DNA of 64,000 nucleotides, taken from IMG/VR virus record IMGVR_UViG_3300037400_003300, positions 16,273 through 80,272 of that record. The stretch is one strand, 5' to 3'. A model generated the notes under the pieces. It was not told where the DNA came from. It searched no databases and saw only the letters and a list, made by a program, of their open reading frames with translations. Shown here in pieces: positions 18,602 through 48,371 of the stretch; within the stretch, counting starts at the first letter, position 1; the number at the start of each line of letters is the position of its first letter. This DNA comes from a virus (lineage: Duplodnaviria > Heunggongvirae > Uroviricota > Caudoviricetes). Position numbers and translations under genes: made by a program.

Positions 18602-18805
18602 ATGCCAAGAAGCGAAGCAAAAAGACGAGCTGATAATAAATACAATCTGGCTCATTATACGGTGCTTGGTTGCAAGATGAAGATAACAGAGGCAGAAGAG
18701 TTTAAAACGGCCTGCAAGGGCTCAGGAACAACCCCTAATGCTGTCTTTAGAAAAGCAATAGAAAACTTTATGAAGAATTATAATAGCGGGGTAAAAGATG
18801 TCTGA
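18602..18805 (+). CDS. small DNA-binding protein (RHH/excisionase-like) upstream of recombinase
   Basis: position and size; basic N-terminus. Confidence 0.35.
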   Translation: MPRSEAKRRADNKYNLAHYTVLGCKMKITEAEEFKTACKGSGTTPNAVFRKAIENFMKNYNSGVKDV

Positions 18806-19814
18806 GAATAAGAGTCAATACACTGATAAGATCAATAAGCTTTTAAATGAAATGCCTGATTTTGTTTCAGATTTTATTTATAACTTTGGCCGGGTTGAGA
18901 ACTATGCGACTAAACTTGAATATTGCCGGGACATAAAGATTTATCTTGAATTTATTGCTAATTATCTTAATGACAATTGCGAAAAGAGTATCAGGGAACT
19001 GTCAATAAAGGATGTTTCTAATATAGAGATCCTTGATATAAATAGATTTCTAACAACACTTTCAGGAAATCACAAGGAATCAACCGTAAAAAGGAAACGT
19101 GCCTCATTATCAAGTATGTACGGATTTTTTGTAGCTACAGGTAAAATGTCTCGCAATCCAATTGCAGCTACTAAGACAATAAAGGTTCCAAGTAAAGAGG
19201 TTGTTTATTTAACTAACGATGAACAACGGATATTTCTCAATACTGTAAGGCATGGAACTAAGCTTCGGGACTCAATTGCAAAGGTCCATTATATCTATGC
19301 TGATAGAGATTCGGCCATGTTTATATTACTTCTGGATACCGGCCTTCGTGTTTCCGAGATGCTTGATACGGATATTATTGATTATAATCTTGAAGAGTGC
19401 AGCGTTGTTGTTACAAGGAAAGGTGGCGATACTCAGATAGTATATTATTCCGATGAGTGCAGAGATTATCTTAAAAAATACTTTGATGCTCAAAAGGCTA
19501 AATATGGATTATCAGAAAAGAATTTAAAATTTCCCGCTTTCACTACTTCTACCGGCAATAGATTGGGAGTACGTGCGGTTGAGATCCTTGTAAAGAAATA
19601 TGTATCTGTATGCCTTCCGGACAAAACAAAGATAATATCACCACACAAATTAAGATCGAGTTTTGCTATGAGTTTCTATGCTGCAAGTGACAATGATATT
19701 CTACTTCTAAAAAAGAAAATGAACCATAAAAGCATACAGACAACAAACATATATGCAAAAGCCTCTGATACAGCCATGAAGGAATCAAGGTCATTGCTGC
19801 AGGGATTAAGATAA
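18798..19814 (+). CDS. tyrosine site-specific recombinase / integrase (XerC/D-like)
   Basis: LLLDTGLRVSE (R), HKLRSSFA (HxxR), TTNIYA (Y). Confidence 0.8.
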   Translation: MSENKSQYTDKINKLLNEMPDFVSDFIYNFGRVENYATKLEYCRDIKIYLEFIANYLNDNCEKSIRELSIKDVSNIEILDINRFLTTLSGNHKESTVKRKRASLSSMYGFFVATGKMSRNPIAATKTIKVPSKEVVYLTNDEQRIFLNTVRHGTKLRDSIAKVHYIYADRDSAMFILLLDTGLRVSEMLDTDIIDYNLEECSVVVTRKGGDTQIVYYSDECRDYLKKYFDAQKAKYGLSEKNLKFPAFTTSTGNRLGVRAVEILVKKYVSVCLPDKTKIISPHKLRSSFAMSFYAASDNDILLLKKKMNHKSIQTTNIYAKASDTAMKESRSLLQGLR

Positions 19815-32494: not shown

Positions 32495-32498
32495 AAAA

Positions 32499-32923: not shown

Positions 32924-34687
32924 ATGGCTTCTAATGACCTTATCAGAGCATTTGAAGGCTATAAAACATATTATGACAATCATGGCGCAGATGAAGCGCT
33001 TATAAATGCCTGTGTAGAAGCTGCAAAGACCGCTTTTTTTATTGAAAAAGATGAAAAATACGGGTTAGGCATTACAGGAACGACTAAAAACTACATAAAT
33101 GAGCTAGTTCTGACTAAGACTGGCGCGGGATTCTTTGATCTTGAGAGATATGCGATAGCAAATGATACAGAGTATACCATCATCAATACCGGTTACGACA
33201 TCTATAGGCTAGAGTCTTTCTCAAGATTTGAATCGTACATGCACTACATCGAAAGGGACAGGAGACAAGAAAAACGTTTTTACCTTCCGAGAAGATGTAC
33301 TTTAGGGATAGTAGCAAATGATATGCAGCGTTTGGAAGATGATGAACTTGATGTTTATGGACTTAGTTTACCATCAAGAACCGGTAAGAGTTCAATCTGT
33401 ATCTTCTTTCTTACATGGGTAGGAGTACGAAAACCAAACAGCCATAATGCGATGGGTGGGCATTCTGGACAGCTTGCAAAGAGATTCTACAGAGGTCTTG
33501 ATAACATAATCGAAACACCGGATTACCGATACGATGAAGTGTTTCATTTATGGAATCCTGAATACCGAGCAGTCTTACAGGCAAAATCATCAGATCCAGC
33601 AGAATTTACACTTAATCTGGGTTCACCTGATGAGTTTTCAACCTTTACATGCCGAGGAATAGACGGAACATGGACGGGTGCTATCGATGTATCTTCAGAT
33701 GGTTACTTATACGTGGATGACCTCATAAGAGACAGAGAACATTCACTTAGTCCATCACGAGTTGAAAATACTTATCAAGAGTATCAGAACAAGATGCTTG
33801 ACCGTATGAATGACGGTGCGAAAAAGATGCTTGTCGGTACTTTATGGACAGTAAATGATCCGCTTGAGCGTGAGAGAAAGGTAAATGATGGCAATCCAAG
33901 GGCATTGTTCAGGAAGATACCTGCTCTTAACGAAAATGATGAGAGTAATTTCCAATACACGGTCAAAGGATTTTCTACTGAGTATTACAAGAACATGCGA
34001 GACAGGCTTGATAAGGCTGAATGGATGGCAAAATTCCAGCAACAGCCATTTGTCAGAGAAGGTCTTACGTATCCTATCGAGGAACTGCGGTTTTTTGATG
34101 GATTTTTACCGGTTGGAAACTGTTCGACTATCGCACACATAGACGTTGCTTTTGGTGGTGGAGACAGGTTATCAATGCCGATATGTAAGGATTTTGGCGA
34201 AGAAAAGAAGTATATCGTGGGCTGGATACATGATAGCCGTTCACCAGGATTTACGGTTCCAAGAGTAGTTGATGCGATTGACAGATACTACATAACAAAG
34301 CTTTACATAGAGAAAAACTCAGGTGGACAGCTCTATGCAGATAAAGTCTCAGAAGAAATGAAGAACAGAGGAATAAACCACTGTAAGATTGAGCTTTATT
34401 CCGCACCTAATAAGATTTCAAAGAATGACAAGATAAGCGGATATTCAGATTATGTAAAACGCAATTTCTTGTTCTTATCGGCTAAAAGCCGTGATATTTA
34501 CGAGGAAGATATAGATTTTTATAAGCAAGATGCCGACTACCGCAAGGCATTGGACGAGATGACAACATTCAGTATTGAGGGAAAGGGAAAGCAGTTTGAT
34601 GATTCACCGGATTCCATCTCTTCACTTGCTATGAAGATGGATAACAGGCGGTCAACAAAAGCAAGGATAATGAGTTCACCATTATGA
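32924..34687 (+). CDS. terL: terminase large subunit
   Basis: Walker A-like LPSRTGKSS; VDDL; C-terminal nuclease-like IDVAFGGGDR; 587 aa. Confidence 0.8.
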   Translation: MASNDLIRAFEGYKTYYDNHGADEALINACVEAAKTAFFIEKDEKYGLGITGTTKNYINELVLTKTGAGFFDLERYAIANDTEYTIINTGYDIYRLESFSRFESYMHYIERDRRQEKRFYLPRRCTLGIVANDMQRLEDDELDVYGLSLPSRTGKSSICIFFLTWVGVRKPNSHNAMGGHSGQLAKRFYRGLDNIIETPDYRYDEVFHLWNPEYRAVLQAKSSDPAEFTLNLGSPDEFSTFTCRGIDGTWTGAIDVSSDGYLYVDDLIRDREHSLSPSRVENTYQEYQNKMLDRMNDGAKKMLVGTLWTVNDPLERERKVNDGNPRALFRKIPALNENDESNFQYTVKGFSTEYYKNMRDRLDKAEWMAKFQQQPFVREGLTYPIEELRFFDGFLPVGNCSTIAHIDVAFGGGDRLSMPICKDFGEEKKYIVGWIHDSRSPGFTVPRVVDAIDRYYITKLYIEKNSGGQLYADKVSEEMKNRGINHCKIELYSAPNKISKNDKISGYSDYVKRNFLFLSAKSRDIYEEDIDFYKQDADYRKALDEMTTFSIEGKGKQFDDSPDSISSLAMKMDNRRSTKARIMSSPL

Positions 34688-35055
34688 GTTTAAATGAGAA
34701 AACAGTTGATGAAAAGACATTTAAAGAGTGTTGTGATCTGATGCTGAGCGGTAGGATGCATCCGGAAGTGGCTGCATATCTCACGGGATTATCAAGACCA
34801 ACGTTTTATAAGAGAGTCAATCAATATTATGATCCTGAGAGATATGGGGAGTTGCCTGAAGATTTCTTTTCCGGCAGAAAATCAGTCTGGAAGGAAAACA
34901 CCGGATGGATAAAGAATAGTGTAGCGGTTCAAAGGTACATTGAGAATCAGAAAGAGAAGCAAAGACGCAGGATTGAAAGGCGGCAGAGGTTAAGGGAAGA
35001 GTTAAACAGAAATAAAGCAGTAAAAGCTGACAAACTTCCCAGATTGGAGGACTGA
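34684..35055 (+). CDS. HTH-containing basic protein (DNA-binding; possibly terminase small-subunit-like)
   Basis: LTGLSRPTFYKRV HTH; Arg-rich C-terminus. Confidence 0.35.
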   Translation: MSLNEKTVDEKTFKECCDLMLSGRMHPEVAAYLTGLSRPTFYKRVNQYYDPERYGELPEDFFSGRKSVWKENTGWIKNSVAVQRYIENQKEKQRRRIERRQRLREELNRNKAVKADKLPRLED

Positions 35056-35210
35056 TGGCAATTGTATTTAAAACGGCTGTAAGTGTAATTTCACTTGCAA
35101 TGATGGGGATTCTTATAGCGATAGGAATGAAAAGTGATGATACAGGAAAGACAGTTTCAAATGTATTGATGCTTATCTATGGACTCTGTATTGTGGCTAT
35201 GTGGGTGTAA
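35055..35210 (+). CDS. small membrane peptide
   Basis: 51-aa two-TM ORF, hand-translated. Confidence 0.3.
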   Translation: MAIVFKTAVSVISLAMMGILIAIGMKSDDTGKTVSNVLMLIYGLCIVAMWV

Positions 35211-35213
35211 AGT

Positions 35214-35624
35214 ATGAATAAGAGAAAATTGGACAAATATAATATAAATAAATTCAGATACAGGGAATTATGTGCTTTTTGTTTGCAATATCAGGATTGG
35301 AAAGATGAACTTAGCAACAATGTCTACTTTTCGGCCATAAAATATGACGGAGCAAAACCATCTAACCATCAAGCTTCCGATACTACAGCCAAACACGCCC
35401 TTAGAATGCTCAAGCTTAAGAGAAATTGTGATCTTATAGAGAAATGTGCGAAAGAAGCCACAGCAAAAACAGGTGGAGAGATATGGAGATACATCATAAA
35501 AAATGTTTGCTTTGAAGTTTCGTACAGGTATATGAAAACATACGATGAAATTCCTATCGAAAGAGCGACATTTTTCTCATATAAGAGGTATTTTTTCTAT
35601 TTATTAGATCAGGAAAAGGATTGA
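35214..35624 (+). CDS. hypothetical protein (possible late-gene regulator)
   Basis: ORF track. Confidence 0.35.
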   Translation: MNKRKLDKYNINKFRYRELCAFCLQYQDWKDELSNNVYFSAIKYDGAKPSNHQASDTTAKHALRMLKLKRNCDLIEKCAKEATAKTGGEIWRYIIKNVCFEVSYRYMKTYDEIPIERATFFSYKRYFFYLLDQEKD

Positions 35625-35652
35625 ATGTTGAATAAATTATCAATTTTGATAT

Positions 35653-35872
35653 AATAAAGAAGAGTGGTAGCGATACCCCTTGATTAAGCAAATAAAAAAG
35701 TCCGCTTAACTTGTGAGGTTAGGAGCGGTCTTTTTTATTGTTCTTTTTGTTCTTTAGAATATCGAACAATAGCCTTATGATATTCAATAGAAAATTGCAC
35801 AATGCAATAATCTCTGAGATAGTCATAGGCATCACGTTCCTTTCCCTTATATTTCAAGGGAAACCGCTACCA
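35653..35872 (-). mobile_element. MITE-like cassette copy 2 (inverted relative to copy 1)
   Basis: TIRs AGTGGTAGCGATACCCC / GGGAAACCGCTACCACT; the internal sequence is recognisably homologous to copy 1 (not scored). Confidence 0.5.
35717..35827 (-). CDS. 36-aa hydrophobic peptide MTISEIIALCNFLLNIIRLLFDILKNKKNNKKDRS
   Basis: homolog of the copy-1 peptide; terminator hairpin CCGCTCCTAACCTCACAAGTTAAGCGG downstream. Confidence 0.4.
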
Positions 35873-36048
35873 CTAAGAGATACTATACCACAGAAGCCCA
35901 ATAAAATAAACTTTATATAAAAATGTAGACTTTTTTATATAACTTTGGTTGTAAAATGGTAGTGTAAAATAATATAAACAGAGCCTATAGGGCATTTAAA
36001 ATACAGCAAGCCTTACCTTCGGGTGGGGCTTTTTTATATGGTGAAAAT

Positions 36049-37599
36049 ATGGGCGGTAGGAAAAAGATAATGACCGATGTTCCGGTCGTTACTGCTGAAA
36101 ATATAATATCGATTATTCAAAAAGCAATCGGAGACCATAAAGAAAACGCTGCTAAGATACAGGAATTATTTGATTTTGAAGAGGGCTTTCAGCCACTTCA
36201 AAGAGTGAAGGTGTATCGAAGCGATATTGATATAGATGTGACTGATAACGTAGCTAATGAGATTGTTGAGTTTAAAGTTGCTCTAAACTATGGAAATCCT
36301 ATTTCTTTTAAGAAACGTGGATCTGTAGATGGGATGATTGAAGCAATCGAGATGTGGAATGACCAGTATTTCCTTACGGATTCAGATTCAAGCAATCAGG
36401 AACTTGCAAGAGATTTTGAAATCTGCGGTATTGGAAATGTTTTTATTGATATAAATACTGATTATGAGGAAGGCGATTCTTACTACACAAGAACAATCTT
36501 AAATCCAAGGACTTCATTTGTTATTTACTCATCATATTACTATGACCGCAGACCGATGGTAGGTGTAACGTTCCGTAAAGATTCAGATGGAGTAACGCAT
36601 TACACGGCATTTTCTAAGGATTTCAGATTTGAGATAAAGTATTGGATAATCCAGAATCCGGGGAAAGAAGATGAACCGGTCTGGGCGCATGAGGATAGGA
36701 GTGGAGAAGTAAATCCACTTCATGCGATACCTATTATCGAATATTTTAGAAGTTATGACAGAATGGGATGCTTTGAAAGGCAGATTCCCGCAATGAACAA
36801 CCTTAACCTGCTTGTTTCTGACTTCTCGAATGACGTAGACCAGAACACACAGGTTGTATGGTGGGCAAATGATTGTGAGTTTGAGACCATACAGGTTGTA
36901 AATGAGGATGGGACTGTTACTGAGCAGGTAAAACATCCAAAATCTAACGAATGGCTTCAGACATTTACAACAAGAGATGGCAAGATACCGAAAGTTCAGC
37001 CACTTATCGTTAATTACGATTACGCGGGAATGCTGAATAATTATATGTCTCAGAGAGCATTGATACTCCAGAAGTGTAATGTGCCTCAGAGAAATGATAA
37101 TTCCGGAGGAAGCACAGGTGTTGCAATGAGTGATGCTACCGGATGGAGTGCAGCTGATATTGCGGCAAATAAAGAGGAAATGATTATCTCTAAGAGTATC
37201 AGACGGGAGATAAAAGTTATCTGTGCTGCGATAAGAGAAAGCGCATGTCCTTTGGACAGTCCACTTAGAAAGATTAAGCCATCCGATATTGAGCCAAGCA
37301 TAAAGAGACAGAAGAATTATGAACTTTCAGTAAAGACAACGGCAATATCTAATCTGATTAATATTGGATTCAGTCTTGAAGATACGCTTGATGCTGTACC
37401 ACTGTTTCCAGATCCGGCACAGGTTATTGAGCGAAGTAAAGAAGGTGTGGAAGCATATCAGAAAACAAAACTTAAGCAATCCGAAAAGAGTGAAGAAAAA
37501 GAAGCAACGCCCGGTTCAGACGATCCCATATATCAGATTGAGAACAGCCCTAATATAGATGGAATGAACACAGATAATGGCGAAGAGGATGAAAATTGA
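36049..37599 (+). CDS. portal protein
   Basis: 516 aa; position between terminase and head-morphogenesis genes. Confidence 0.65.
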   Translation: MGGRKKIMTDVPVVTAENIISIIQKAIGDHKENAAKIQELFDFEEGFQPLQRVKVYRSDIDIDVTDNVANEIVEFKVALNYGNPISFKKRGSVDGMIEAIEMWNDQYFLTDSDSSNQELARDFEICGIGNVFIDINTDYEEGDSYYTRTILNPRTSFVIYSSYYYDRRPMVGVTFRKDSDGVTHYTAFSKDFRFEIKYWIIQNPGKEDEPVWAHEDRSGEVNPLHAIPIIEYFRSYDRMGCFERQIPAMNNLNLLVSDFSNDVDQNTQVVWWANDCEFETIQVVNEDGTVTEQVKHPKSNEWLQTFTTRDGKIPKVQPLIVNYDYAGMLNNYMSQRALILQKCNVPQRNDNSGGSTGVAMSDATGWSAADIAANKEEMIISKSIRREIKVICAAIRESACPLDSPLRKIKPSDIEPSIKRQKNYELSVKTTAISNLINIGFSLEDTLDAVPLFPDPAQVIERSKEGVEAYQKTKLKQSEKSEEKEATPGSDDPIYQIENSPNIDGMNTDNGEEDEN

Positions 37600-38233
37600 T
37601 GAACTTAATATCTTAAGCAGTGAGAATACGCATGAAGAGGAGTCTTTTGATTATAAAGATTATATGGAGCATTACTTTGATACTATGCAAATCTCCGAGA
37701 AGCAAAAGAGAGAGCGTATTGAAGAAGCAAAAGAGATACTTGATGCAATCTTACTGTTTTTGATATGGTGCGAAGAAAATCCTGAGAACGTGCAAAGAGA
37801 AGATACAAAGCGCGATATGGAAAATCTTTACAAAGAAGTCATCTTTCAGAAAGTCGAGCCTGATGATTTTGTTGATATGTACGTTCTGTTCTTTATAAAC
37901 AATCTGGTAGAAGTAACAACGGAGAATGAAGGTGATGAATACTTCACATCTGTTGAAAGAGCTACAAAGATTGCATGTAATGAAGCAAACAGCGTTATCA
38001 ACTATTCAGAACTGCAAAGAGCCATTGAACAGGGATACACTTATAAGCAATGGCACACAGAGCTTGATGAGAAGGTTCGTGAGACTCATCAGGAGATGGA
38101 AGGTGTTACGATTCCTATAAACGAGCCGTTTTTTGTTGGTAATTCCAGGATGATGATGCCACATGACATAACAATGGGAGCGGATGCGAGAGAGATAGTT
38201 AATTGTAGGTGTTCACTTTCATTTTTGGATTAA
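37577..38233 (+). CDS. head morphogenesis protein (SPP1 gp7 / Mu F family)
   Basis: C-terminal REIVNCRCSL motif. Confidence 0.7.
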   Translation: MAKRMKIDELNILSSENTHEEESFDYKDYMEHYFDTMQISEKQKRERIEEAKEILDAILLFLIWCEENPENVQREDTKRDMENLYKEVIFQKVEPDDFVDMYVLFFINNLVEVTTENEGDEYFTSVERATKIACNEANSVINYSELQRAIEQGYTYKQWHTELDEKVRETHQEMEGVTIPINEPFFVGNSRMMMPHDITMGADAREIVNCRCSLSFLD

Positions 38234-38409
38234 TATGGTTCGGGACAGAGACGTTAAACCTGTTCGAGAAGTCGTAGAGCGCGACTATAAATAAGGCTCA
38301 ATCGTATGAATACCGAGAGCGGCGGTCATAATACCGCTTATAAAATGTAAACCTTTGAAAGCTATGATGCATATCATGGCTTTTTTTATTGCTCAAAAAG
38401 GAGAAGGTC

Positions 38410-38598
38410 ATGATTACAAGTATTCAAGCAAATAGCGCAAACGGTGTAGGACATTTAGCATGTGATACAGAAGCAGACCTTGCTAATCTTCCGGATTACG
38501 CAAAATCAAATAACTTGAAACAGGGGACTGACTGCATTGTTATTGATACATCCAACGTATACATGATGAAGTCGGATTATACCTTTAAGCAGATTTAA
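38410..38598 (+). CDS. hypothetical small protein
   Basis: RBS AAAGGAGAAGG. Confidence 0.35.
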   Translation: MITSIQANSANGVGHLACDTEADLANLPDYAKSNNLKQGTDCIVIDTSNVYMMKSDYTFKQI

Positions 38599-38609
38599 GG
38601 AGGAAAACT

Positions 38610-39032
38610 ATGGATGTTATATCGTATGTTCTCTCCAAACGAATAGCTGAAGGCGCAGTATCGGGCGTGGCAGAAATGACTGTTGATGGGCAGACCTTAA
38701 ATATAGAATGTACGGATGGAACACACCTGGAAATGGATTTTCCTATGCCTGCTGATGGTGCATCTATAACAGATGTTGAGATCATCTCAAATGGACATCT
38801 TATCTGCACGTTATCTAATGGGAATACGATTGATGCAGGGAAAGTCCCAGACGTACTTACAAGAATCGAGTCTGTCAGCGACATAGACGATGTTGAGCTT
38901 GACGCTCTTGCAGATGGGCAAGTTCTTTCGTGGGATGAAACAAGTGGCAAATGGACTAATAAGGATACTGGCGGTTCAGTAGATGAACTGACACAGGAAC
39001 AGGTAGAAAACCTGCTCTCAATAATACAATAA
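38610..39032 (+). CDS. tail-fibre-associated protein
   Basis: AGGAGG RBS; in tail-fibre-like module. Confidence 0.4.
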   Translation: MDVISYVLSKRIAEGAVSGVAEMTVDGQTLNIECTDGTHLEMDFPMPADGASITDVEIISNGHLICTLSNGNTIDAGKVPDVLTRIESVSDIDDVELDALADGQVLSWDETSGKWTNKDTGGSVDELTQEQVENLLSIIQ

Positions 39033-39042
39033 AGGAGAAAAT

Positions 39043-39702
39043 GTGATGGCAAATTTTGTTTCTAATGACAATATGACCGAATTGATGAATGGTATTGCAA
39101 CAAAGTTTAATAGTCTTGGAGGAGCATGGAAGTTCAGAGGTTCTGTTACATTCGCTAATCTTCCATCAACTATCACCCCTGCAATGGCAGGTTATCTTTA
39201 CAACGTGACCAATGACTTTACAACAGATGCTAGATTCGTTGAGGGTGCAGGCAAGAAATACAAAGCAGGAACCAATGTAGCAGTTGCAGATTTGACTACA
39301 TATTCAGCTGTAACACCGGTTGGTTCAGAAGATCCTTCATCGGAAGGCTGGTATGAGCTTATCAATGGAAAATACATTCTTTCAACAGATACAGTAGTTG
39401 ATAGTGAAAAGACATATTACAGTGCTGTAGTAGATGTGAAGTTTGATGTAGCGGGTTCTTTTGAAGATTTAGAGAATGTCTACAACATGATCGCAGGTAC
39501 ATTTGATGATACAGAGCCTTACAGCACTGGCGATGTTGTAATTTATGAGGGTGGCCTTTACAAATTTAAAGCGGATCATGCAGCAGGGGCTTGGGATGTT
39601 TCTGAGGTTGATAGTACAAAAGTTGCAGACCTTGTTACAGCAGCAGAACCAGACAGCCTTACGCCTGCACAAATCAATGCGTTGTTAGCACTTCTTGATT
39701 AA
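39043..39702 (+). CDS. tail fibre-like protein (paralog of 59552..61003 N-terminal region)
   Basis: shared FxxLPS...G.LYNVTxxFTT...EGAGxxYxAGTNV and ...GKTYY segments. Confidence 0.5.
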   Translation: MMANFVSNDNMTELMNGIATKFNSLGGAWKFRGSVTFANLPSTITPAMAGYLYNVTNDFTTDARFVEGAGKKYKAGTNVAVADLTTYSAVTPVGSEDPSSEGWYELINGKYILSTDTVVDSEKTYYSAVVDVKFDVAGSFEDLENVYNMIAGTFDDTEPYSTGDVVIYEGGLYKFKADHAAGAWDVSEVDSTKVADLVTAAEPDSLTPAQINALLALLD

Positions 39703-39713
39703 GAGGGAAAGAT

Positions 39714-40166
39714 ATGAGTCTAAAAAACTATATGGCTTATGGGGATGCTGAAACCATCCTCACAAGCTATGCAAATAGAATAAAGCAAAGTCCTACGACA
39801 TTTGTTGGAACAACGGCAGAGTGGAATGCACTATCAGCTTCAGAAAAAGCAGAATATGTCCTTGTAGACATTACTGACGATGAGAGTTCACTTTCAGGAA
39901 TGCCAAGATTTCCAGATTATTCTAATCAGATTACAGTTGATGGAAGCCCTTGGACAGCTACAGAAGATTGTTATATTACTTATACATTATGCAATAGTGT
40001 ATACAGTACAGATAACAGGCTTCAGATTGATGGAAATGTTGTTAGTACCTATAGTAGCGCAGGTGGAACTTATGTACATCAATTCAATGGTTATGTTAGA
40101 GAAGGTCAGATAATATCTGCGGATGACGTTTATAGTCTTAGAGTATTTCCGCTACTAGGAGATTAA
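39714..40166 (+). CDS. hypothetical structural protein
   Basis: ORF track. Confidence 0.4.
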   Translation: MSLKNYMAYGDAETILTSYANRIKQSPTTFVGTTAEWNALSASEKAEYVLVDITDDESSLSGMPRFPDYSNQITVDGSPWTATEDCYITYTLCNSVYSTDNRLQIDGNVVSTYSSAGGTYVHQFNGYVREGQIISADDVYSLRVFPLLGD

Positions 40167-40180
40167 GGAAGGAAAAGACA

Positions 40181-42142
40181 ATGGGATTATATAAGAATAA
40201 TAATGGTGTTTTAATTCCCATAGCAGGGCGCGGAAAAGCGGAATATGGAGCAAGCACTACAAGAAGAAATACTTGGACAAATAGCGAAGCTATAAATCCG
40301 GATTCAAGTATTGCCTTTTCTGTATCATTCGATGTACCGATGCCTGATGATAATTATGAGGTCGATTGGACTTGCAGTGCAAGCGCATTACACCCTGTTA
40401 TAGAAGGAAAGACAGCAAGTGGTTTTACAGGTCATGCATATAGGCTTATATCTCCTGCGGTAGAAATCGGGAATGGTGTTATCAATTTTACAGCATTCAG
40501 ACTATATACGGATCTTGAATACAACGAACTTTTAGATGATACTTCCGGGTTAATAAAAAACACCTCAGAGATGGGAGCTGTCAACCTATTTGAGACCACT
40601 TTAAAAAGTCAGAGGTACAATAAGGTAATCTATTCAGTTAATGCCGATGGAACAATTGGCATTGAGGTACTTGAAAGACCTACAGGAAGTACCGGAAATA
40701 TTATTGGGTGGATTGAGGTAAAGGCAGGAGAGACTTATAAGCTCACAGGTGGAATATCTGAAACCGAAAGACTTGAACTTAGGAATGCCGATTATAGTGC
40801 GTGGACAAATAATACAGCAGGTAAGACTGTTTCTTCTCCGGTTGTAGCCACAAACATTGATACATTTATGCCTAATGATGATGCTACTATAATGGTTTAT
40901 TGCCGCATAGATGAAACAGGCAACACCGGAAATGTCGGCACTTTAGAGCCTATGATAAGATTTGCTTCCTTTTTGGAGGACACTTTCTTACCGTATGCAA
41001 AGACCAATAGGCTTTTGACAGTAGAAACAGATGAATTATTCGATAACGCCTCTATGCTCAAAGGCATGACAGCAATAACAGTTCAGACGGATCTTGATGA
41101 TGTTACTACTTTAGGCAATTACTATAAATCAAGCACATCTATATATGTGACTAATGCTCCGACAGGAATCGATTCAGAGACAAGTGCGATATTCAGGCTT
41201 AATGTTGAGAACGGTTCTGATTCTACAGATAAATACATACAGACAATCATCAAGAATGATGGGACAACCTACAAAAGAGGTTATGACGGAACGAATTGGA
41301 GCAGCTGGATAGAGTTTGCTTCAAGTGCCACTGTTTCAAGCATAAATACAAGGCTTACCGCAGCTGAAACAGATATAGACAACCTTGAATCAAGTAGATT
41401 AAAGACATATACGTCTGATGCAACGGCATGGGACACGGTGCCTACATCTTTAAGCGTAAAGCCTGTTACAAGTGGCGGCATAAAGACTGCGCTTGATAAT
41501 AAGCTTGCTACATATGCAGGTGATGATACAGCTTGGGACACAACCCCTACAGCGAACAGCACAAACCCTGTTACAAGTGGCGGCGTAAAGACTCAGATTG
41601 ACACTATCAACGGCAACAAGGCTAATCAGACTGTCATAGCAACAAGGCAGGCTAATCTTGTCGCTTCAAGAAGGTACGAGATCGGAGATCAGTTCATTTA
41701 CAATAACACTCTGTATAAAGCTACACAGGTTATTGAGCCAAACACAAATATCAATATCGCGGCAGGTGGAAATGCTACAACGGCAGACAATATTAGTTCG
41801 CAAATTAGCAATTTAGGGAATTACTCAACAACTGAACATTTAACAGGCAAATATTGGGTAGGTGGGAAACCGATATATAGAAAAGTAGTTAATTTTGGTA
41901 TGTTACCGAATAATACAGTTAAAACAGTAAATCATAATGTTTCTGGTATTTCTGATTGGGTATCTTTTTATGGTATAACATGGAACAATGCGAAAACTAG
42001 CATGGTATTACCTCATGTTGATTTTGATTCTTCATATTCTGTTGCGCTTTGGGTTACTTCAACAGCTATTACAATAAAAACAGGGCAAAATAGAAATGAA
42101 TTTTCAGAATGCTATGTGATACTTGAATATACCAAAACGTAA
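40181..42142 (+). CDS. tail fibre / receptor-binding protein with invertible C-terminal segment
   Basis: AWDTxPTxxSxxPVTSGG(I/V)KT repeats; inverted repeat at 41797 lies inside the gene. Confidence 0.6.
   Translation: MGLYKNNNGVLIPIAGRGKAEYGASTTRRNTWTNSEAINPDSSIAFSVSFDVPMPDDNYEVDWTCSASALHPVIEGKTASGFTGHAYRLISPAVEIGNGVINFTAFRLYTDLEYNELLDDTSGLIKNTSEMGAVNLFETTLKSQRYNKVIYSVNADGTIGIEVLERPTGSTGNIIGWIEVKAGETYKLTGGISETERLELRNADYSAWTNNTAGKTVSSPVVATNIDTFMPNDDATIMVYCRIDETGNTGNVGTLEPMIRFASFLEDTFLPYAKTNRLLTVETDELFDNASMLKGMTAITVQTDLDDVTTLGNYYKSSTSIYVTNAPTGIDSETSAIFRLNVENGSDSTDKYIQTIIKNDGTTYKRGYDGTNWSSWIEFASSATVSSINTRLTAAETDIDNLESSRLKTYTSDATAWDTVPTSLSVKPVTSGGIKTALDNKLATYAGDDTAWDTTPTANSTNPVTSGGVKTQIDTINGNKANQTVIATRQANLVASRRYEIGDQFIYNNTLYKATQVIEPNTNINIAAGGNATTADNISSQISNLGNYSTTEHLTGKYWVGGKPIYRKVVNFGMLPNNTVKTVNHNVSGISDWVSFYGITWNNAKTSMVLPHVDFDSSYSVALWVTSTAITIKTGQNRNEFSECYVILEYTKT
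41797..41814. repeat. inversion site IR1-L TTCGCAAATTAGCAATTT
   Basis: 18/18 match to the reverse complement of 42399-42416. Confidence 0.7.
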
Positions 42143-42400
42143 TTAAACTTTTATGCAAACAATACCAGCACTCATTGTTACATTGTTAGCCCCACTTACC
42201 ACCTTTGTACATTGAACATCAACATAATTACTCACTACATGTATTGCAGAAAAAACAACTGTCCAGTCGTTTGTGCTAAAAGCAAGCAATGAATGATAGG
42301 CGTAACCACTTGGAACATATAATCTTACAGATATGGTGTTTCCTAGATTCATGTTGTTGTATGTGGTATCGCCTATTACGGTTTTAAAGCGATTGGTCAA
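42143..42400 (-). CDS. alternative tail-fibre C-terminal cassette (promoterless, inverted)
   Basis: no own N-terminus; the IR encodes SQISNL in the same frame as in the + gene. Confidence 0.55.
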   Translation of the reverse strand: MTNRFKTVIGDTTYNNMNLGNTISVRLYVPSGYAYHSLLAFSTNDWTVVFSAIHVVSNYVDVQCTKVVSGANNVTMSAGIVCIKV

Positions 42401-42416
42401 ATTGCTAATTTGCGAA
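42399..42416. repeat. inversion site IR1-R (reverse complement of IR1-L)
   Basis: AAATTGCTAATTTGCGAA. Confidence 0.7.
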
Positions 42417-42483
42417 ATAAATAAAAATCGAATTAGATAAAAAAATGCATTCTAAAATAAAGACTTTTATAAAGGAGAAAAAA

Positions 42484-42747
42484 ATGAAAACAAAATTTTA
42501 TACTCTTATTATCAAGACTTATGATAATGGAGCCGATGACAAAACATCGTTGTATACGTATGACACATTCGATGAAGCGATTTCCGCAGCTCATACTCAG
42601 TGGGGACAGAACGTCGGTGCTGACACGATAGCAAGAGTTATGGCAAAGGTAACTAGCAGTTACGGAGTAGATTATCCTCTTCATACGCTGTATTGGGAGA
42701 AGCCCCAGCCCCAGCCTGAAGAAGAGGAAGAGGAAACTTCAGAGTGA
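42484..42747 (+). CDS. hypothetical protein with acidic PQPQPEEEEEE tail
   Basis: AAAGGAGAAAAA RBS. Confidence 0.4.
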   Translation: MKTKFYTLIIKTYDNGADDKTSLYTYDTFDEAISAAHTQWGQNVGADTIARVMAKVTSSYGVDYPLHTLYWEKPQPQPEEEEEETSE

Positions 42748-42880
42748 TTCTTATAAAAAGGTAAAGAATTTATAAGAAACCTCTGCTATGTATATGCTAA
42801 TAATTTGCAGAACAGAAAACTCATTTCATTATGAAAAAAATATGATGCCCCTTGTCGATATAATAAGGCAGGAGGTGCTT

Positions 42881-43867
42881 ATGGAAGAAGTAATTAATAA
42901 AATCGTAAATGCAATGGATGATTTAACACCAGAGCAGATCAGAAAATTAAGGAATGTGTTGGTTATTAATTTGAATAATCAACCAAGTCAAAAAAATGAA
43001 GTGAGTATAGGGATTGAGAATTGGGAGCAGATTATTAAGAATTATCTAGGATGTAAAAAACTTGAAAACTGTGCAGATGGAACCATTATGAACTATCGAA
43101 GAATTTTAAGGATAATGTATTCTGAGATTGGAAAATCAATAAAAGATATAACGTCTAATGATTTGAGATTTTTTATGGCTAAGTATATAGAAGAAAGAAA
43201 AATCTCGATGCAATATTCAGAGAACATTAGGCATATTTTGAATGGATTCTTCAGATGGTGTCAAGATGAAGAAATAATCCAGTCGAATCCGGCGAGAAAG
43301 CTTCAAAGGATAAAAGTTCCAAAGCTAATAAAGAAACCTTATACAGCAGAGGAAAGACTTAAACTTACAAGAACAGCAAAGTGCATGAGAGACATGGCAA
43401 TCATGGAAGTTTTGTATAGCACTGCGGGCAGACTTGGAGAAATCCTTGCTTTGAATAGAGAGGATGTAAAGTTTATTGGTAACAAAGCGGAAATCATAAT
43501 ATATGGACAGAAAGGCAAGGCAGAGAGAAAAGTCTTTCTTACAGAGCAAAGTGTTTATTATCTGAAGAGTTACCTTGAAAGTCGAACAGATAATGATCCT
43601 GCATTATTTGTATCTTTAAGAAAGCCATTCCATAGGATTGATGAAAGAGCAGTTCAGTTAATGATTAAGAATCTCGGAGAACGATGCGGAGTTGTTGCAC
43701 ATCCACATAAGTTCAGAAGGACTCTATTAACTGATATGAGTAAACGTGGAGCAAATATTCAGGACATAAAGGAATATGCCGGACATGTGAAGATTGAAAC
43801 GACCATGCTCTATGTTTCGACCAATGAAGAGTCAGTAAAAGCAGCATTTGATAGATGCATAAGCTAA
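42881..43867 (+). CDS. tyrosine recombinase (candidate invertase for the flanking invertible segments)
   Basis: GGAGGTG RBS; ...STAGRLGE (R), HKFRRT (HxxR), TTMLYV (Y). Confidence 0.75.
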   Translation: MEEVINKIVNAMDDLTPEQIRKLRNVLVINLNNQPSQKNEVSIGIENWEQIIKNYLGCKKLENCADGTIMNYRRILRIMYSEIGKSIKDITSNDLRFFMAKYIEERKISMQYSENIRHILNGFFRWCQDEEIIQSNPARKLQRIKVPKLIKKPYTAEERLKLTRTAKCMRDMAIMEVLYSTAGRLGEILALNREDVKFIGNKAEIIIYGQKGKAERKVFLTEQSVYYLKSYLESRTDNDPALFVSLRKPFHRIDERAVQLMIKNLGERCGVVAHPHKFRRTLLTDMSKRGANIQDIKEYAGHVKIETTMLYVSTNEESVKAAFDRCIS

Positions 43868-43912
43868 TGTAATGAACTCTTTTAGGCTGTCCGGAAGGAT
43901 GGCTTATTTTTC

Positions 43913-44254
43913 ATGCATTTTTTTAATGTGGTAAGGGACGTTAGAAAACATGCGCAATTTAGCAAATTTGCGAACGCTGGGGCGAAAGGAACTTATTTTA
44001 TTCTTGCTCTTAACGCAACATACACAGCAGGTTCCGATGGCTATTTGCAAATGTCTGCCAGTGCTCCTGCGGGTTCGGCAGTAATCGTTGAATTTTACGA
44101 TAGAAGTGGTGTCCATATGTTTACTGTGTTTGAGGTAACACCAGTCCAAAATATGGGCTCAAGCTCTGCTATATATGTTAAGAAAGGAATGATGTTTAAA
44201 GCCACAAGAATTGATGCTGGCGCACAGGCTATCTTCAATCCATTTAGTTATTGA
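43913..44254 (+). CDS. 113-aa protein with invertible C-terminal segment
   Basis: IR2-L at 43956 lies in codons AQFSKFAN. Confidence 0.5.
   Translation: MHFFNVVRDVRKHAQFSKFANAGAKGTYFILALNATYTAGSDGYLQMSASAPAGSAVIVEFYDRSGVHMFTVFEVTPVQNMGSSSAIYVKKGMMFKATRIDAGAQAIFNPFSY
43956..43975. repeat. inversion site IR2-L AATTTAGCAAATTTGCGAAC
   Basis: 20/20 reverse complement of 44493-44512. Confidence 0.7.
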
Positions 44255-44264
44255 TAACGTTTAT

Positions 44265-44492
44265 TTAAAGCCAAACCAAAAACCTCACTGCTATATTTGC
44301 GCTCTCGTTATTGAACGCTTGGCAAATTGAGCTTGCCCCTGAAGTATTTGAATTGTAATTAATAAAATACCTTGCTGTTTGCTGGCAAACACAAGTCATT
44401 CTGGATTTAGTACCGAAAAATTTTCCTGATGGGAGAAAATATTGCCCCCATGATTGAGGCGGCACTACAATCCAGTCTGAATCATAATCTGG
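44265..44492 (-). CDS. alternative C-terminal cassette for gene 43913 (inverted, promoterless)
   Basis: frame through the IR reads EFSKFAN, same as the + gene. Confidence 0.5.
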   Translation of the reverse strand, partial: PDYDSDWIVVPPQSWGQYFLPSGKFFGTKSRMTCVCQQTARYFINYNSNTSGASSICQAFNNESANIAVRFLVWL

Positions 44493-44512
44493 GTTCGCAA
44501 ATTTGCTAAATT
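44493..44512. repeat. inversion site IR2-R GTTCGCAAATTTGCTAAATT
   Basis: shares TTCGCAAATT core with IR1. Confidence 0.7.
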
Positions 44513-44595
44513 CCGTAATTAAAGTATTTATATAAAGAGCATAAAGATTGCTTTTAATTTTTTTAAAATCAAATGGATTAAAACAGGAATTAAAA

Positions 44596-44721
44596 TGCCA
44601 GTAAAGAAAGTAAAAGGTGGTTACAAATGGGGCGATAGCGGAAAAGTATACAAGAAAAAAGAAGATGCTTTAAAGCAAGGACGCGCCATAGAAGCCAATA
44701 AAAAGAAGAAAAAGCGTTGAA
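44596..44721 (+). CDS. small lysine-rich protein
   Basis: 41-aa ORF MPVKKVKGGYKWGDSGKVYKKKEDALKQGRAIEANKKKKKR. Confidence 0.3.
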
Positions 44722-44904
44722 CCTTTCAAGGTCAGATGGTACAGTATAGAAAAAGGTGCTACCCACGATAACGGTTAACCCGAAATAATGGTAATAATAC
44801 CCGCTAGTTTCTCAGGCTGGGCGGTTATTTTATTGCCTGATAATTTTTGAATATTAACAGGGATAAGACATTCCATTACGGAGTGTCTTTTTTGAGGGCA
44901 AAAT

Positions 44905-45243
44905 ATGTTTACAACAGGGCAGATTTGGGCTTTTTTTGTAGTACTTATAGGACTTATCCTTACGATATTAAACATCATAGAGAAAGTAATCCTTTTAAAA
45001 GCAAGGTCAAAAGAACCACAGGCTAAGTTAGAGAGCAGATTAGTGGCTCTTGAAACATGGAAATCAGAAGTGAATCAGAGACTTGATAAGGATGAAGAAC
45101 ACTTTGACAAGATTGACGAAGGTAACAAGGTAACACAGCAGGCTTTACTTGCGCTGATGGATGCCGCTTTGTCAGATGATGGAAGTAAAGGTGAACTGAA
45201 ATCAGCAAGAAAAGACCTCTATGAATATCTGTCAAAGAAATGA
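44905..45243 (+). CDS. membrane-anchored coiled-coil protein
   Basis: N-terminal TM helix. Confidence 0.4.
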   Translation: MFTTGQIWAFFVVLIGLILTILNIIEKVILLKARSKEPQAKLESRLVALETWKSEVNQRLDKDEEHFDKIDEGNKVTQQALLALMDAALSDDGSKGELKSARKDLYEYLSKK

Positions 45244-45455
45244 AAGGAGACACCATGAAACTTAGTGATTTCTTGGCTGCTTTAAAAAATCCTAATGTTC
45301 AGGTTGCAGTTACCGACTTGCAGGATGCTGAGATATGCAAGATTTTTGCTTCTTCTTATCCAGCGCTTGATGAATCGGTCAGCGAGAGAACAATAAACAG
45401 ATGGTCAATCAAAACAGCAACAAGTATAGAGATTGTGCTGAATGATGCTCCATAA
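45240..45455 (+). CDS. hypothetical protein
   Basis: ORF track. Confidence 0.35.
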   Translation: MKGDTMKLSDFLAALKNPNVQVAVTDLQDAEICKIFASSYPALDESVSERTINRWSIKTATSIEIVLNDAP

Positions 45456-46192
45456 AATTATTGGACTTCAACTTTAAATGTGATAGAATAGCATGGATGC
45501 TACCAAAAGCGGTAGGCGGTTGGCTCTTTGCCAGGTTATACCTGAGAACTCCCTTATTAAAGGAGGTGTTTTATGGGAAATCTGCTATGGAGCTTTGATG
45601 CTAAGACTATTGCTTATTACTTTGAGCATGGACTTAGTGATAATGGGAACTATAATCCTCATTGTTGCAATCATATCAAAGTTCAAGAAATAAATTTTTC
45701 CATCAAAAAAGACCGCTGAACACTTTGACCGAGTAGAAAGCGATCTCTTTTGATTGCAACTATTAATCAGAGCTAACCGTCTATCGGTAGCATCTTTCTA
45801 CAGACATAATAACATAAATCCTATAAAAAGCAAAATTCCATAATGCTTGCTAGCCAAATCATCCCCCATGATTGGCTTTATCTCCTCCTACAAGGCATCT
45901 ATGTTTCATCGCATAGATGTCTTTTTTGTCTGCAAAGGCATAATTTTTCCTTTTACTAGGGCGTATGACAGTCAAATGTCATGCGCCTTTTTCTTTGTCT
46001 GCCAAGATGAAGACTCGTTATTAAACCTCCGGGGTGCCTATCTGTCAAAGGATTCGTGCCCTATCACGCTCAGAGTAATCTGGGCGTTTTTTTGTGTCAA
46101 GGAAAAGACTTAGAAACCCTGAGAGAACAGCAAACACGCCATGAGGTTAGAGAAAACCTCACCAAAAAACACGAAAAGGAGAAAACAAAGAT

Positions 46193-46858
46193 ATGAAGAA
46201 CAGAACCATCGGAACCAATGAATTGTTGCCTATGAACTTACAGTTTTTTGCTGAGGATGCGGGTGAGGGGGCAGACGAAAGCTCCGGTTCGACGGACAAC
46301 GGAGAAACAAAGCCTGAACCCGATGAGGGCGAACCATCCAAGAGTTATGAGGATGCGTTAAGTGAGATTGCCGCAGCTAAAGCGGAAGCAAAGAAGTTAA
46401 AGGCAGAAAGGGACGCGGCACTTAAGAAAAGTGGTGAGATTTCCAAACAGCTTAGAGCAAAGATGTCTGAAGATGAACTGAAAGCAGAACAGGATGCACA
46501 GGCTAAAGAGGAATACGAAGCTCATGTAAAAGAACTTGAGCAGTACAAAGCCGAGAACGAAGCACTTAAGCGTTATAGGCTTCAAGGCATGACTGATGAT
46601 CTTGCAGCCAAAGCTGCAAAAGCAGAAATCGAGGGTGACATGGATGCTCTTGCGGATGTTCAGAAACAGCATACGCAGTCTCTTATCAAAGCAAAGGAAG
46701 CTGAATGGAAAGCGTCACGCCCAAGAGTAAACGTTGGCGATGATGAGGATTCTTCTATGACAAAGGAAGAGATTTTAGCAATTCAGGACAGAGATGAACG
46801 TACCAGGATGATTGCTAAGCATCTTTCTTTGTTTGAACAAAAAAACAAAGGAGAATAA
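46193..46858 (+). CDS. scaffolding protein
   Basis: acidic, coiled-coil; N-terminal MNLQFFA motif; upstream of the capsid gene. Confidence 0.55.
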   Translation: MKNRTIGTNELLPMNLQFFAEDAGEGADESSGSTDNGETKPEPDEGEPSKSYEDALSEIAAAKAEAKKLKAERDAALKKSGEISKQLRAKMSEDELKAEQDAQAKEEYEAHVKELEQYKAENEALKRYRLQGMTDDLAAKAAKAEIEGDMDALADVQKQHTQSLIKAKEAEWKASRPRVNVGDDEDSSMTKEEILAIQDRDERTRMIAKHLSLFEQKNKGE

Positions 46859-46861
46859 AAG

Positions 46862-48007
46862 ATGGCAGCTGAAAAAAATCTAATCAAAAAAGCCGATCTT
46901 GCTAGAGCAAGAGAAGTCGATTTCGTCTATCGCTTTACCGACAGTATCAATAAGCTTGTTGAAGCTCTTGGTGTAACAAGAAAGGAAAAAAAGGTTGCAG
47001 GTACTTTTCTTAAGGCTTACAAAGCAACCGGAACTCTTCAGGACGGACTTGTAGCAGAAGGTGATCTTATTCCTCTTAGCCACTACAAGACTATACCTGT
47101 TAACTTCGGTGAGATTCCTTTCAAGAAATGGAGAAAGGCTACATCCGCTGAAGCTATTATCGAAAAAGGCTACGAACAGGCTGTAACAATGACAACAGAC
47201 GAGATGCTCAAGGATGCTCAGAAGGGTATCAAGAAGTATTTCTTCAACTTCTTGTCACAGGGCACAGGTCTTGCATCAGGAACAACTTTCCAGTCAACAC
47301 TTGCAGCTATTTGGGGACAGCTTCAGGTACTTTTTGAAGATACAGAGATTGCAGCTGTATACTTCATGAACCCACTTGATGTTGCTGATTATCTTGGAAC
47401 AGCTCAGATCACATTGCAGACAGCTTTCGGTATGTCTTATATCGAGAACTTCCTTGGACTTGGAACAGTTATCCTTAATTCCAATATTCCAAAGGGAACT
47501 ATCTATGGAACTGCTAAGGAAAACATAGTTCTTTACTACATTCCTGTAAATGGTGCTGATCTTGGAGAGGTATTCCAGTTCACATCTGATGAGCTTGGAT
47601 ATATCGGTATCCATGAAACATCTGATTATGACAACATGACAGCAAAAGATACTGTTGTTTCCGGTATCGTTTTGTTTGCTGAGAGAATCGATGGTATTGT
47701 TGTTGGTTTTATCGGTGGTTCTATCACACCTACAATCACAACTGACGTTGATGAGATCACAATTCCTGTTGGCGGAATGGATACAATCCATGCTAAGGTT
47801 GCACCTGCTGGAACATCCTTCACATGGACATCTGATGACACAACAGAAACATATGTTAAGGTTACTCCTGGACTTGACAATGCAGATGTTGTTATCACAG
47901 GTGTTGCAACAACAATTTCCGGTGGAACAGATTCACCCGTTACACTTACATGCACAGCAGGCGGCGTAACAAAGACTGTAACTGTTACTGTTTCAGCTAG
48001 TGCTTGA
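46862..48007 (+). CDS. major capsid protein with C-terminal Ig-like (Big_2-type) domain
   Basis: position and size; the C-terminal ~90 aa is rich in T/V and G, like an Ig-like decoration domain. Confidence 0.55.
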   Translation: MAAEKNLIKKADLARAREVDFVYRFTDSINKLVEALGVTRKEKKVAGTFLKAYKATGTLQDGLVAEGDLIPLSHYKTIPVNFGEIPFKKWRKATSAEAIIEKGYEQAVTMTTDEMLKDAQKGIKKYFFNFLSQGTGLASGTTFQSTLAAIWGQLQVLFEDTEIAAVYFMNPLDVADYLGTAQITLQTAFGMSYIENFLGLGTVILNSNIPKGTIYGTAKENIVLYYIPVNGADLGEVFQFTSDELGYIGIHETSDYDNMTAKDTVVSGIVLFAERIDGIVVGFIGGSITPTITTDVDEITIPVGGMDTIHAKVAPAGTSFTWTSDDTTETYVKVTPGLDNADVVITGVATTISGGTDSPVTLTCTAGGVTKTVTVTVSASA

Positions 48008-48026
48008 TGAAAGAAGGGGAAGGCGT

Positions 48027-48371
48027 ATGCAGTATGAAGTAATTAGATACTTTACTGATGCGCAGGATAACGAGCATGCTTACCGCGAGGGAGATATCTT
48101 CCCTCGCGAGGGGCATACCGTATCAAATGCGCGTATTAGTGATTTGCTTAGTGGAAATAACTTTCAGAGAGTACCTCTTATTAAGCGCGTGACAAACACA
48201 AGCGTTAAGAAAGAGAAGAAGGTTGAGGAAGCTAAGGAATACACAGCAGAGGACATCATGAAAATGCCTTACATGAAGCTCAAATCTCTTGCAAGGCAGA
48301 ATGATGTTGATGTTAAGGACAGGGAAGCTGTTGATATAAGAAATGATCTTATTGAAAAACTGGGGTTGTGA
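48027..48371 (+). CDS. head-tail connector region protein
   Basis: gene order. Confidence 0.35.
   Translation: MQYEVIRYFTDAQDNEHAYREGDIFPREGHTVSNARISDLLSGNNFQRVPLIKRVTNTSVKKEKKVEEAKEYTAEDIMKMPYMKLKSLARQNDVDVKDREAVDIRNDLIEKLGL

Follow-up and report, generated by a model that had tools for sequence, protein, structure and literature searches.

The DNA under study is a 64,000-nt stretch of a virus of the class Caudoviricetes (positions 16,273 to 80,272 of IMG/VR record IMGVR_UViG_3300037400_003300), which is called the window in this text and whose coordinates are used unless another contig is named. Between the portal and MuF genes and the scaffold and major capsid genes, it carries a gene for a putative tail fibre (40181..42142, + strand), followed by an open reading frame (ORF) on the opposite strand, a tyrosine recombinase gene and a further pair of convergent ORFs. 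Four copies of a short site, referred to as A to D in the order of their position, border these elements, and the coding stretches next to the sites are subsequently called cassettes c1 to c4. As set out below, the locus is likely to be a phage-encoded shufflon that exchanges the C-terminal and probably receptor-binding tip of the fibre.

The fibre ORF encodes 653 aa and contains an exact 18-mer, TTCGCAAATTAGCAATTT, at 41797-41814 on the + strand, where it is read as the codons S-Q-I-S-N-L. Its exact reverse complement is located at 42399-42416. If one mismatch is allowed, the arms grow to 22 nt (41793-41814 and 42399-42420), and none of 100 dinucleotide-preserving shuffles of the window equalled the real count of 18-mer matches. 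The interval from arm to arm measures 584 bp. An ORF on the - strand, 42143..42400, runs through the distal arm and reads it in the same phase as the fibre ORF reads its own arm (…ISQISNL-TNRFKTV…IKV). A further match to the repeat at 29535-29552, with three mismatches, was dismissed as chance because it has none of the CG..AA/TAGCAA anatomy of the other copies, and the five matches of the exact 18-mer in IMG/VR were single, unrelated and uninformative.

These two arms belong to sites A and B. The constant part of the fibre (M1-L545, 40181..41815, +) ends in the in-frame site A (…ADNISSQISNL), which occupies 41796..41821 on the + strand and consists of a left arm GTTCGCAAAT (41796-41805), the centre TAGCAA (41806-41811) and a right arm TTTAGGGAAT (41812-41821). 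The tip that is now expressed, c1 (41816..42142, +), comprises G546-T653, i.e. 108 aa plus the stop codon. It is followed on the - strand by the silent alternative c2 (42143..42397), which provides 84 aa after SQISNL and lacks its own start codon upstream of the site. The stop codons of c1 and c2 directly adjoin (TAA at 42140-42142, and 42143-42145, TTA on the + strand). Site B (42392..42417, -) has the left arm TTTCGCAAAT, the same centre at 42402-42407 and the right arm TTTGACCAAT. A first-pass annotation of this DNA had already claimed the 18-bp in-frame inverted repeat in the fibre gene, and its coordinates, the SQISNL codons and the 584-bp interval proved to be exact; the cassette that it placed on the - strand, in the SQISNL frame through the distal repeat, was borne out by reading the codons, and it is start-less. 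The layout given there also stands, but the residue counts need correction: the constant part ends at L545 instead of residue 543, c1 has 108 and not 109 aa, and the 85 aa given for c2 are reached only if the Leu is counted, since 84 aa follow SNL.

A second pair of inverted repeats (43953-43975 and 44493-44515, 23 nt, 96% identity) lies just downstream of the recombinase gene. It had been overlooked in the first-pass annotation, and it encloses another convergent cassette pair, c3 and c4. The repeat is related to the first one and is read in the same codon phase (AQFSKF vs SQISNL). A fuller site pattern, CGNAAWWTAGCAA, matches exactly four times in the window, namely at sites A-D, where 0.13 matches would be expected by chance. 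Site C (43950..43975, +) is composed of the left arm ATGCGCAATT, the centre TAGCAA at 43960-43965 and the right arm ATTTGCGAAC; site D (44493..44518, -) has the left arm TTACGGAATT, the centre TAGCAA at 44503-44508 and again the right arm ATTTGCGAAC. Cassette c3 (43976..44254, +) reads …HAQFSKFAN-AGAKGTYF…PFSY, and c4 (44265..44492, -) reads …TEFSKFAN-PDYDSDW…VWL without a start codon of its own. The four cassettes of the window thus encode 78-108 aa and form two convergent pairs, 41816-42397 and 43976-44492. The single-segment switch that was originally described holds for A/B; its extent was underestimated, as there are four sites, four cassettes and two segments.

Cassette c3 follows a leader of only 16 codons. 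This leader begins downstream of a terminator-like hairpin with a T-run (43883..43906, +, found by a consensus scan only) that is placed between the recombinase stop codon and site C. The leader contains an ATG in the window and in the related locus L024, but not in L015, L018, L019, L078, L010 and L083, and most relatives have a stop within 8 codons upstream of site C and no ATG. The hairpin, the stops and the missing ATG make it unlikely that translation from position C is the point of the arrangement. A GGAAGGA before the c3 ATG was considered as a ribosome-binding site and dropped, because it is 13 nt away and part of the terminator-like hairpin.

We could observe the inverted state in a near-identical phage. 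The fibre protein P0001 (629 aa) shares 100% identity with the window fibre up to and including SQISNL; after this point comes c2, with 2 substitutions. It is encoded on L008, a contig of Logan run SRR9036511 that aligns to positions 32181-50070 of the window (17.9 kb) at 99.8-100% identity and is collinear with it except for two reversed blocks, which correspond to window positions 41793-42420 and 43953-44512. The overlaps between adjacent alignment blocks have exactly the length of the repeats, so that the breakpoints of the first inversion fall into sites A and B and those of the second into sites C and D. Thus, both segments have been flipped on their own, in a phage that is the same in other respects. 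The first-pass annotation had predicted an inverted state in which the constant N-terminus is fused to the alternative tip, and P0001 is this state. A further contig, L009 (SRR12668996), is 100% identical to the window and has its orientation, but ends 10 nt past site C (window position 43985). This end may be an assembly break caused by mixed C-D orientations in that sample, which is at most a weak hint.

For a closer look at the sites, we compared 42 of them from 14 loci. All share a left arm of the form T-N-C-G-N-A-A-W-W, followed by the 6-bp centre and a variable stretch. The T at position -9 is present in 42 of 42 sites and was required by no search pattern. The left arms are specific to their position. 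Arm A encodes (S/T)QI within the fibre gene. Arm B, ATTTCGCAA(T/A)(A/T), is non-coding and would read ISQI/Y/N; arm C, CATGCGCAATT, follows the recombinase gene and reads KHAQF; and arm D, TTACG(G/T)AA(A/T)T, often contains an in-frame TAA. That the left arm is conserved even outside coding sequence argues for a role at the DNA level. The right arms vary and move with the cassette, and at most sites one arm is degenerate. The best right arm, ATTTGCGAAC (codons K-F-A-N), is an exact inverted repeat of the left arm GTTCGCAAAT; a hybrid of the A-left arm, the centre and the D-right arm, GTTCGCAAAT-TAGCAA-ATTTGCGAAC, would therefore be a perfect 10-6-10 core. The corresponding junction SQISKFAN is found in the relatives' proteins P0004 and P0030, and the reciprocal junction KHAQF-SNL is present at position C in L010, L015 and L019.

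Most loci have the centre TAGCAA, but all four sites of L083 and three sites of L084 carry TGGTAA instead. Both sites of L013, a locus with a 60% identical recombinase, have TAGTGA. In the Cre, Flp and Xer systems, the overlap region must match between partner sites. A centre that varies between loci yet is uniform within a locus is what would be expected of the strand-exchange region of a tyrosine recombinase, and we propose TAGCAA as the crossover region. The whole site is predicted to be a dif/lox-like core for the adjacent Xer-like recombinase. The opposite orientation of the sites, based on GTTCGCAAATT that is common to A(+) and D(+), was rejected: in that register, joining A and C would yield SSQIC-stop, and the cassette ORFs, the reading frame and the covarying centre are all consistent with the in-frame orientation. 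A search of metagenome contigs with the 17-mer of site C returned 53 loci, just one of which has the recombinase (L075, the contig of L010); the rest are chance matches.

The recombinase gene is called as 42788..43867 (+), with a likely start at ATG 42881, preceded by AGGAGG, which gives the 328 aa called in relatives. The protein matches the Pfam families Phage_integrase (PF00589, 1.4e-28) and Phage_int_SAM_4 (PF13495, 3.3e-09); it consists of a SAM-like core-binding domain and a catalytic domain and has no arm-binding domain. The catalytic set R…K…HxxR…H…Y is intact and can be read in the sequence as TAGRLGE, GKGKAER, HKFRRT, AGHVK and TMLY, in agreement with the tyrosine recombinase that the first-pass annotation had assigned to the switch. 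The best matches in NCBIfam are XerA (181 bits, cut-off 220), XerC (128 vs 335) and XerD (106 vs 330). Since all these scores are below the equivalog cut-offs, the protein is Xer-like and not an Xer orthologue, and NCBIfam contained no Rci-type match for it. Among the phages of the INPHARED collection, its best matches reach at most 37% identity and belong to unannotated gut phage contigs and Clostridia-phage integrases. The gene is 380-470 bp away from the first segment, and in every relative examined, about 15 independent loci, it sits between both cassette pairs. No serine recombinase of the resolvase/invertase family was detected among 20 other larger ORFs (165-590 aa) that were scanned.

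One relative has lost the recombinase together with the C-D block. In L006 (IMG/VR 3300037249_000806, 7940-9000), a deletion corresponding to window positions 42798/44503 has brought the start region of the recombinase gene (…ATGTATATGCT) next to the centre of site D (TTGCTA), reading TGCTAA…, and the B-like site is degenerate (TCACAAAATAGCAATATG). From its sequence, this looks like a formerly switchable locus that was frozen by a self-inflicted deletion at a pseudo-site. The space between site B and the recombinase gene is occupied by a small ORF (42445..42747, +, 100 aa, more likely 87 aa from ATG 42485 with AGGAG upstream) that has no family match in Pfam, PHROGs or NCBIfam. It is present in L006, L008 and L009 and absent in L019, L024 and L078, and thus is no obligatory part of the switch.

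Sites and layout are conserved in the relatives; a repeat confined to this one phage had been named as an observation that would speak against the switch. The sites are kept in non-coding flanks even across phages whose fibres are only 60-80% identical. The N-terminal ~545 aa of the fibre are common to dozens of homologues, which diverge right after (S/T)QI(S/G)(N/K). All four cassettes of the window have counterparts that are fused to fibres elsewhere. Cassette c1 is the C-terminus of P0049 (94% identity) and P0011 (89%); c2 is the tip of P0001 and has homologues in P0040, P0057 and P0059; homologues of c3 are the tips of P0114 (48%) and P0048 (46%); and c4 is 94% identical to the tip of P0064. 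Among the 120 best homologues of the fibre, the motif (S/T)QI(S/G)(N/K) followed by a tail of 78-141 aa was found in 78. Together with the four cassettes of the window, these 82 tails fall into at least 38 unrelated families, and the motif is joined to at least four N-terminal architectures, of about 380, 500, 650 and 700 aa. The sequences come from rumen and gut metagenomes, and the named source records point to Lachnospiraceae (Pseudobutyrivibrio sp., Anaerobutyricum, Bilifractor), apart from one metagenome-assembled genome that is probably mis-binned. Neither a megablast search with the 38-46 kb region nor a tblastn search with the fibre returned a match among the INPHARED phages.

The dN/dS ratio is 0.09 for c4 (window position D vs L015 position C), 0.22 for c3 (vs the copy in L018) and 0.19-0.21 for two other pairs of silent-position cassettes, which indicates that cassettes at unexpressed positions are under purifying selection. 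Homologous cassettes also change position: the cassette at B in L019 resembles that at C in L078, and the one at C in L019 resembles that at B in L010. The right-arm types behave similarly, with SNL at A/B and SKFAN at C/D in the window and the reverse in L019 (SKFAN at A/B, SNL at C/D). In L015 and L018, the B cassette is truncated to 26-29 codons, so that intact alternatives remain at C and D only. The exchange of cassettes and right arms, the selection and the shared, co-varying centre suggest that the two segments communicate.

The comparative evidence is unusually clear, with natural inversions in both segments, a well-defined 10-6-10 core and a co-varying centre. Based on these observations, we propose the following mechanism. 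The one constant gene part, 40181-41815, would end in a recombination site that doubles as the codons SQISNL. Recombination between two inverted sites would flip the intervening DNA and swap the cassette that is fused in frame to the constant part, and only the cassette at position A would be translated. Cassettes c3 and c4 could reach this position via longer inversions of the A×D type or an equivalent exchange. The likely route would be a 2.7-kb A×D inversion that carries the recombinase gene along, followed by A×C and B×C inversions. Such a route predicts genomes with an inverted recombinase gene; these states might be rare or selected against, or the exchange might take place between genome copies. 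It appears very probable to us that the fibre tip is switched by programmed inversion of segment A-B, and there is good reason to believe that the adjacent recombinase performs the inversion, given its domains and its constant place in the locus. We lean slightly towards all four cassettes being in play. The fullest version of the proposal, which we give an even chance, is that the two segments form a single four-cassette shufflon with one expressed and three silent positions, the recombinase gene inside its largest unit (A×D, 2.7 kb), a half-degenerate dif-like site and a family-wide shared pool of dozens of tips.

Several observations weigh against this proposal. Despite four sites of one anatomy, the inversions observed are A×B and C×D only. 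The recombinase gene is co-oriented with the fibre gene in all ~15 loci, no long A×D intermediate was seen, and the A-left/D-right junction predicted for the window phage was not found in metagenome or viral contigs. The two orientations come from different samples and not from one population. Five runs of one study (SRR30328956-68) yielded a relative, L078-L082, that is 100% identical in all of them, with its four cassettes arranged alike; it may be that switching seldom occurs, or that the assemblies show the majority form only. The invariance of several site positions other than the T at -9 is partly imposed by the search patterns. A second tyrosine recombinase is encoded at 18798..19814 and is a possible catalyst. 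Finally, the fibre has no domain matches and its structural model is poor; receptor binding by the tips is suggested by analogy only. Some of these points would be accounted for by two independent binary switches, with A×B flipping the expressed tip and the C×D pair, a relic or a separate small ORF, never reaching the fibre gene. The restriction to the two short inversions, the recombinase that is never inverted, the negative junction searches and the ATG before site C in the window and L024 would all be as expected. However, full fibres of relatives end in cassettes of the c3 and c4 types, which are also subject to purifying selection, and from one relative to another, cassettes as well as right-arm types are found in different segments. 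The centre hexamer changes in step in the A/B and C/D pairs, and L015 and L018, with their truncated B cassette, have their sole alternatives at C/D. Expression from position C also fits poorly with the terminator-like hairpin before it and with the leader of L015, L018, L019, L078 and L083, where the ATG is missing and a stop is found at most 8 codons upstream. Two separate switches thus seem to us possible but rather unlikely.

A different explanation would be that the orientations are no product of programmed inversion at all, but fixed strain differences that arose by rare RecA-type recombination, or repeat misassemblies. The different samples of the two states and the single orientation in the five runs would be compatible with this, and inverted repeats are a known source of misassembly. 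Repeats of 18-23 nt, on the other hand, are far below efficient RecA substrates. Moreover, the breakpoints of the two separate flipped segments fall precisely into sites that share one anatomy, these sites are conserved in non-coding flanks with a co-varying centre, and the recombinase gene is always found between them; misassembly at the repeats would itself need both orientations in the reads. We consider this explanation very improbable. Only a little less improbable is a programmed inversion by another enzyme, be it the second recombinase (18798..19814) or one of the host, with the adjacent gene being an integrase or a dimer resolvase. A second gene of the Phage_integrase family is indeed present, an element with ParA and Rep3 would need dimer resolution, and invertases acting in trans are known, e.g. 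Mpi in Bacteroides (PMC6109161). Yet every relative has the adjacent recombinase gene enclosed by the cassette pairs, its product has no arm-binding domain, like invertases and Xer proteins, and its loss in L006 is accompanied by a degenerate site B and a deletion that ends in the centre of site D.

The nature of the fibre protein itself was approached by sequence and structure comparison. It has no match in Pfam, PHROGs, NCBIfam or the PDB sequences, and a search of the fibre, the cassettes and the neighbouring small ORFs against Pfam, PHROGs and NCBIfam gave nothing except a weak CBM_5_12 match in 39043..39702. An AlphaFold2 model of the full fibre (32-sequence alignment) has a mean pLDDT of 47 and is confident only at residues ~294-380 and ~490-540, leaving the tips unmodelled. 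Foldseek found no match to the PDB at E<=0.001; the only suggestive match, weak and local, is to the fold of the R2 pyocin fibre (6ct8; probability 1.00, E 0.05, 91 columns, rmsd 3.2). Because of its poor quality, the model was not used to argue for a fold of the tips. The relative P0029 is named 'pyocin knob domain-containing protein' at NCBI, and more distant relatives with the C-terminal module and the motif carry PF10651, PF12789 and PF07921 (Fibritin_C). By analogy, the tips may bind different receptors and thereby have a role in host range. The tape-measure gene and the genes downstream of it are located at 51931-61003. As the fibre gene does not follow the tape-measure gene, its product may be attached to the tail, the neck or the head.

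Within the constant part, the fibre gene contains an imperfect 105-nt tandem duplication (41405-41501 and 41510-41606, 73% identity) that encodes TY(T/A)xDxTAWDTxPTxxSxxPVTSGG(I/V)KT. Relatives have one to three copies of this unit, or an 'NYGHVKL' segment instead. In the relatives, the fibre gene is always preceded by three conserved small genes (140, 219 and 150 aa; window positions 38610-40166), which may encode further fibre or adaptor components; the weak CBM_5_12 match belongs to the one of 219 aa.

Outside the switch locus, the window encodes a ParA protein (7741-8559, -; AAA_31, 1e-49), a Rep3-family initiator (9547-10767, +), the second tyrosine recombinase (18798-19814, +) and an FtsK/SpoIIIE ATPase (19855-20985, -), alongside a full head-tail module. 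With ParA, Rep3 and the complete head-tail module, the element looks like a phage-plasmid and not like an integrating prophage. A TnpB/IS605 OrfB-type gene is present at 15569-16735 (+; HTH_OrfB_IS605, OrfB_IS605, Cas12f1-like TNB). A homologue is located elsewhere in L023, between the MuF gene and the fibre module, so this gene appears to be mobile within the phage family. We also noticed a MuF-like head protein extended by a CdiA_C toxin domain in L083 (1809-2963) and a BrnT/BrnA toxin-antitoxin pair just upstream of the portal gene in L019 (410-1016) and L020.

If the proposal is correct, the phage family would possess a natural plug-in host-range library with a simple and portable pair of site and recombinase. 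The small Xer-like recombinase and its site of roughly 26 bp are a candidate tool for inversion-based engineering, and the locus offers a compact system for studying host change by phages of uncultured rumen and gut Lachnospiraceae. Such loci also break assemblies, and one phage then resembles several 'strains' with different receptor-binding proteins.

A literature search found no paper describing this phage family, but several known systems bear comparison with it. The first-pass annotation had likened the switch to the Mu G segment or a shufflon. The likeness to a shufflon stands; that to the G segment is limited to function, because Gin of Mu is a serine invertase, and R64 and Rin are better analogues. 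Gin, Cin of P1 and Min of p15B are all serine invertases that depend on a Fis-bound enhancer and act on sites with a 2-bp crossover. Like the locus described here, the Mu, P1 and p15B systems vary the host range by inverting DNA for the tail-fibre C-terminus, P1 and p15B are phage-plasmids, and Min serves several sites and many cassettes. In contrast, the neighbouring enzyme here is of the tyrosine family, and the segments in the window contain no fibre-assembly chaperone gene such as U/U' of those systems. The Xer/dif and Cre/loxP sites are similar in having two inverted arms around an asymmetric centre (6 bp in dif, 8 bp in lox) that is matched between partners. They differ in that the inversion proposed here occurs within a gene and does not serve dimer resolution, and in that one arm is degenerate at most of our sites.

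The shufflon of R64/IncI1 plasmids (Rci, sfx, PilV) is generally known to combine a tyrosine recombinase, multiple inversions, in-frame adhesin tips and convergent cassette pairs, and in its sites, as in those of the window, a short conserved centre is flanked by a conserved arm on one side and a weakly conserved one on the other. The protein it varies, however, is an adhesin of a conjugative pilus and not a virion protein, the sfx sequence is unrelated, and Rci, with its distinctive C-terminal domain, is located at an end of the shufflon.

Among known systems, the Rin shufflon of Bifidobacterium breve and B. longum prophages comes closest. Its recombinase was described as the first invertase of the tyrosine family that is encoded by a phage and acts on a receptor-binding protein (Mavrich et al. 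2018, PMC6109161), and the shufflon has also been reported from prophages of Eggerthella lenta (PMC8778435). We compared the two systems by their descriptions. Both are phage-encoded and join a constant N-terminal part of a fibre or receptor-binding protein to several start-less C-terminal cassettes, with inversion at short repeats at the fusion point. The 11-bp rix site of Rin, TTCCCTAACCC (PMC6109161), is not matched by the site in the window, T.CG.AAWW-TAGCAA-(ATTTGCGAAC), and the two are unrelated. The Rin locus is arranged as Rc, a row of Rv cassettes and rin at the far end, whereas here the recombinase gene lies between two convergent pairs. The Rin locus comes after the tape-measure gene in integrated prophages of Actinobacteria; the present one belongs to a ParA/Rep3 phage-plasmid of rumen Firmicutes, where it is located between the genes for MuF and the scaffold. 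Until now, Rin of Actinobacteria prophages has been the only described case of fibre-tip switching by a tyrosine recombinase. The principle is therefore not new, but the locus presented here would apply the same strategy with a different site, a different layout and a different type of virus.

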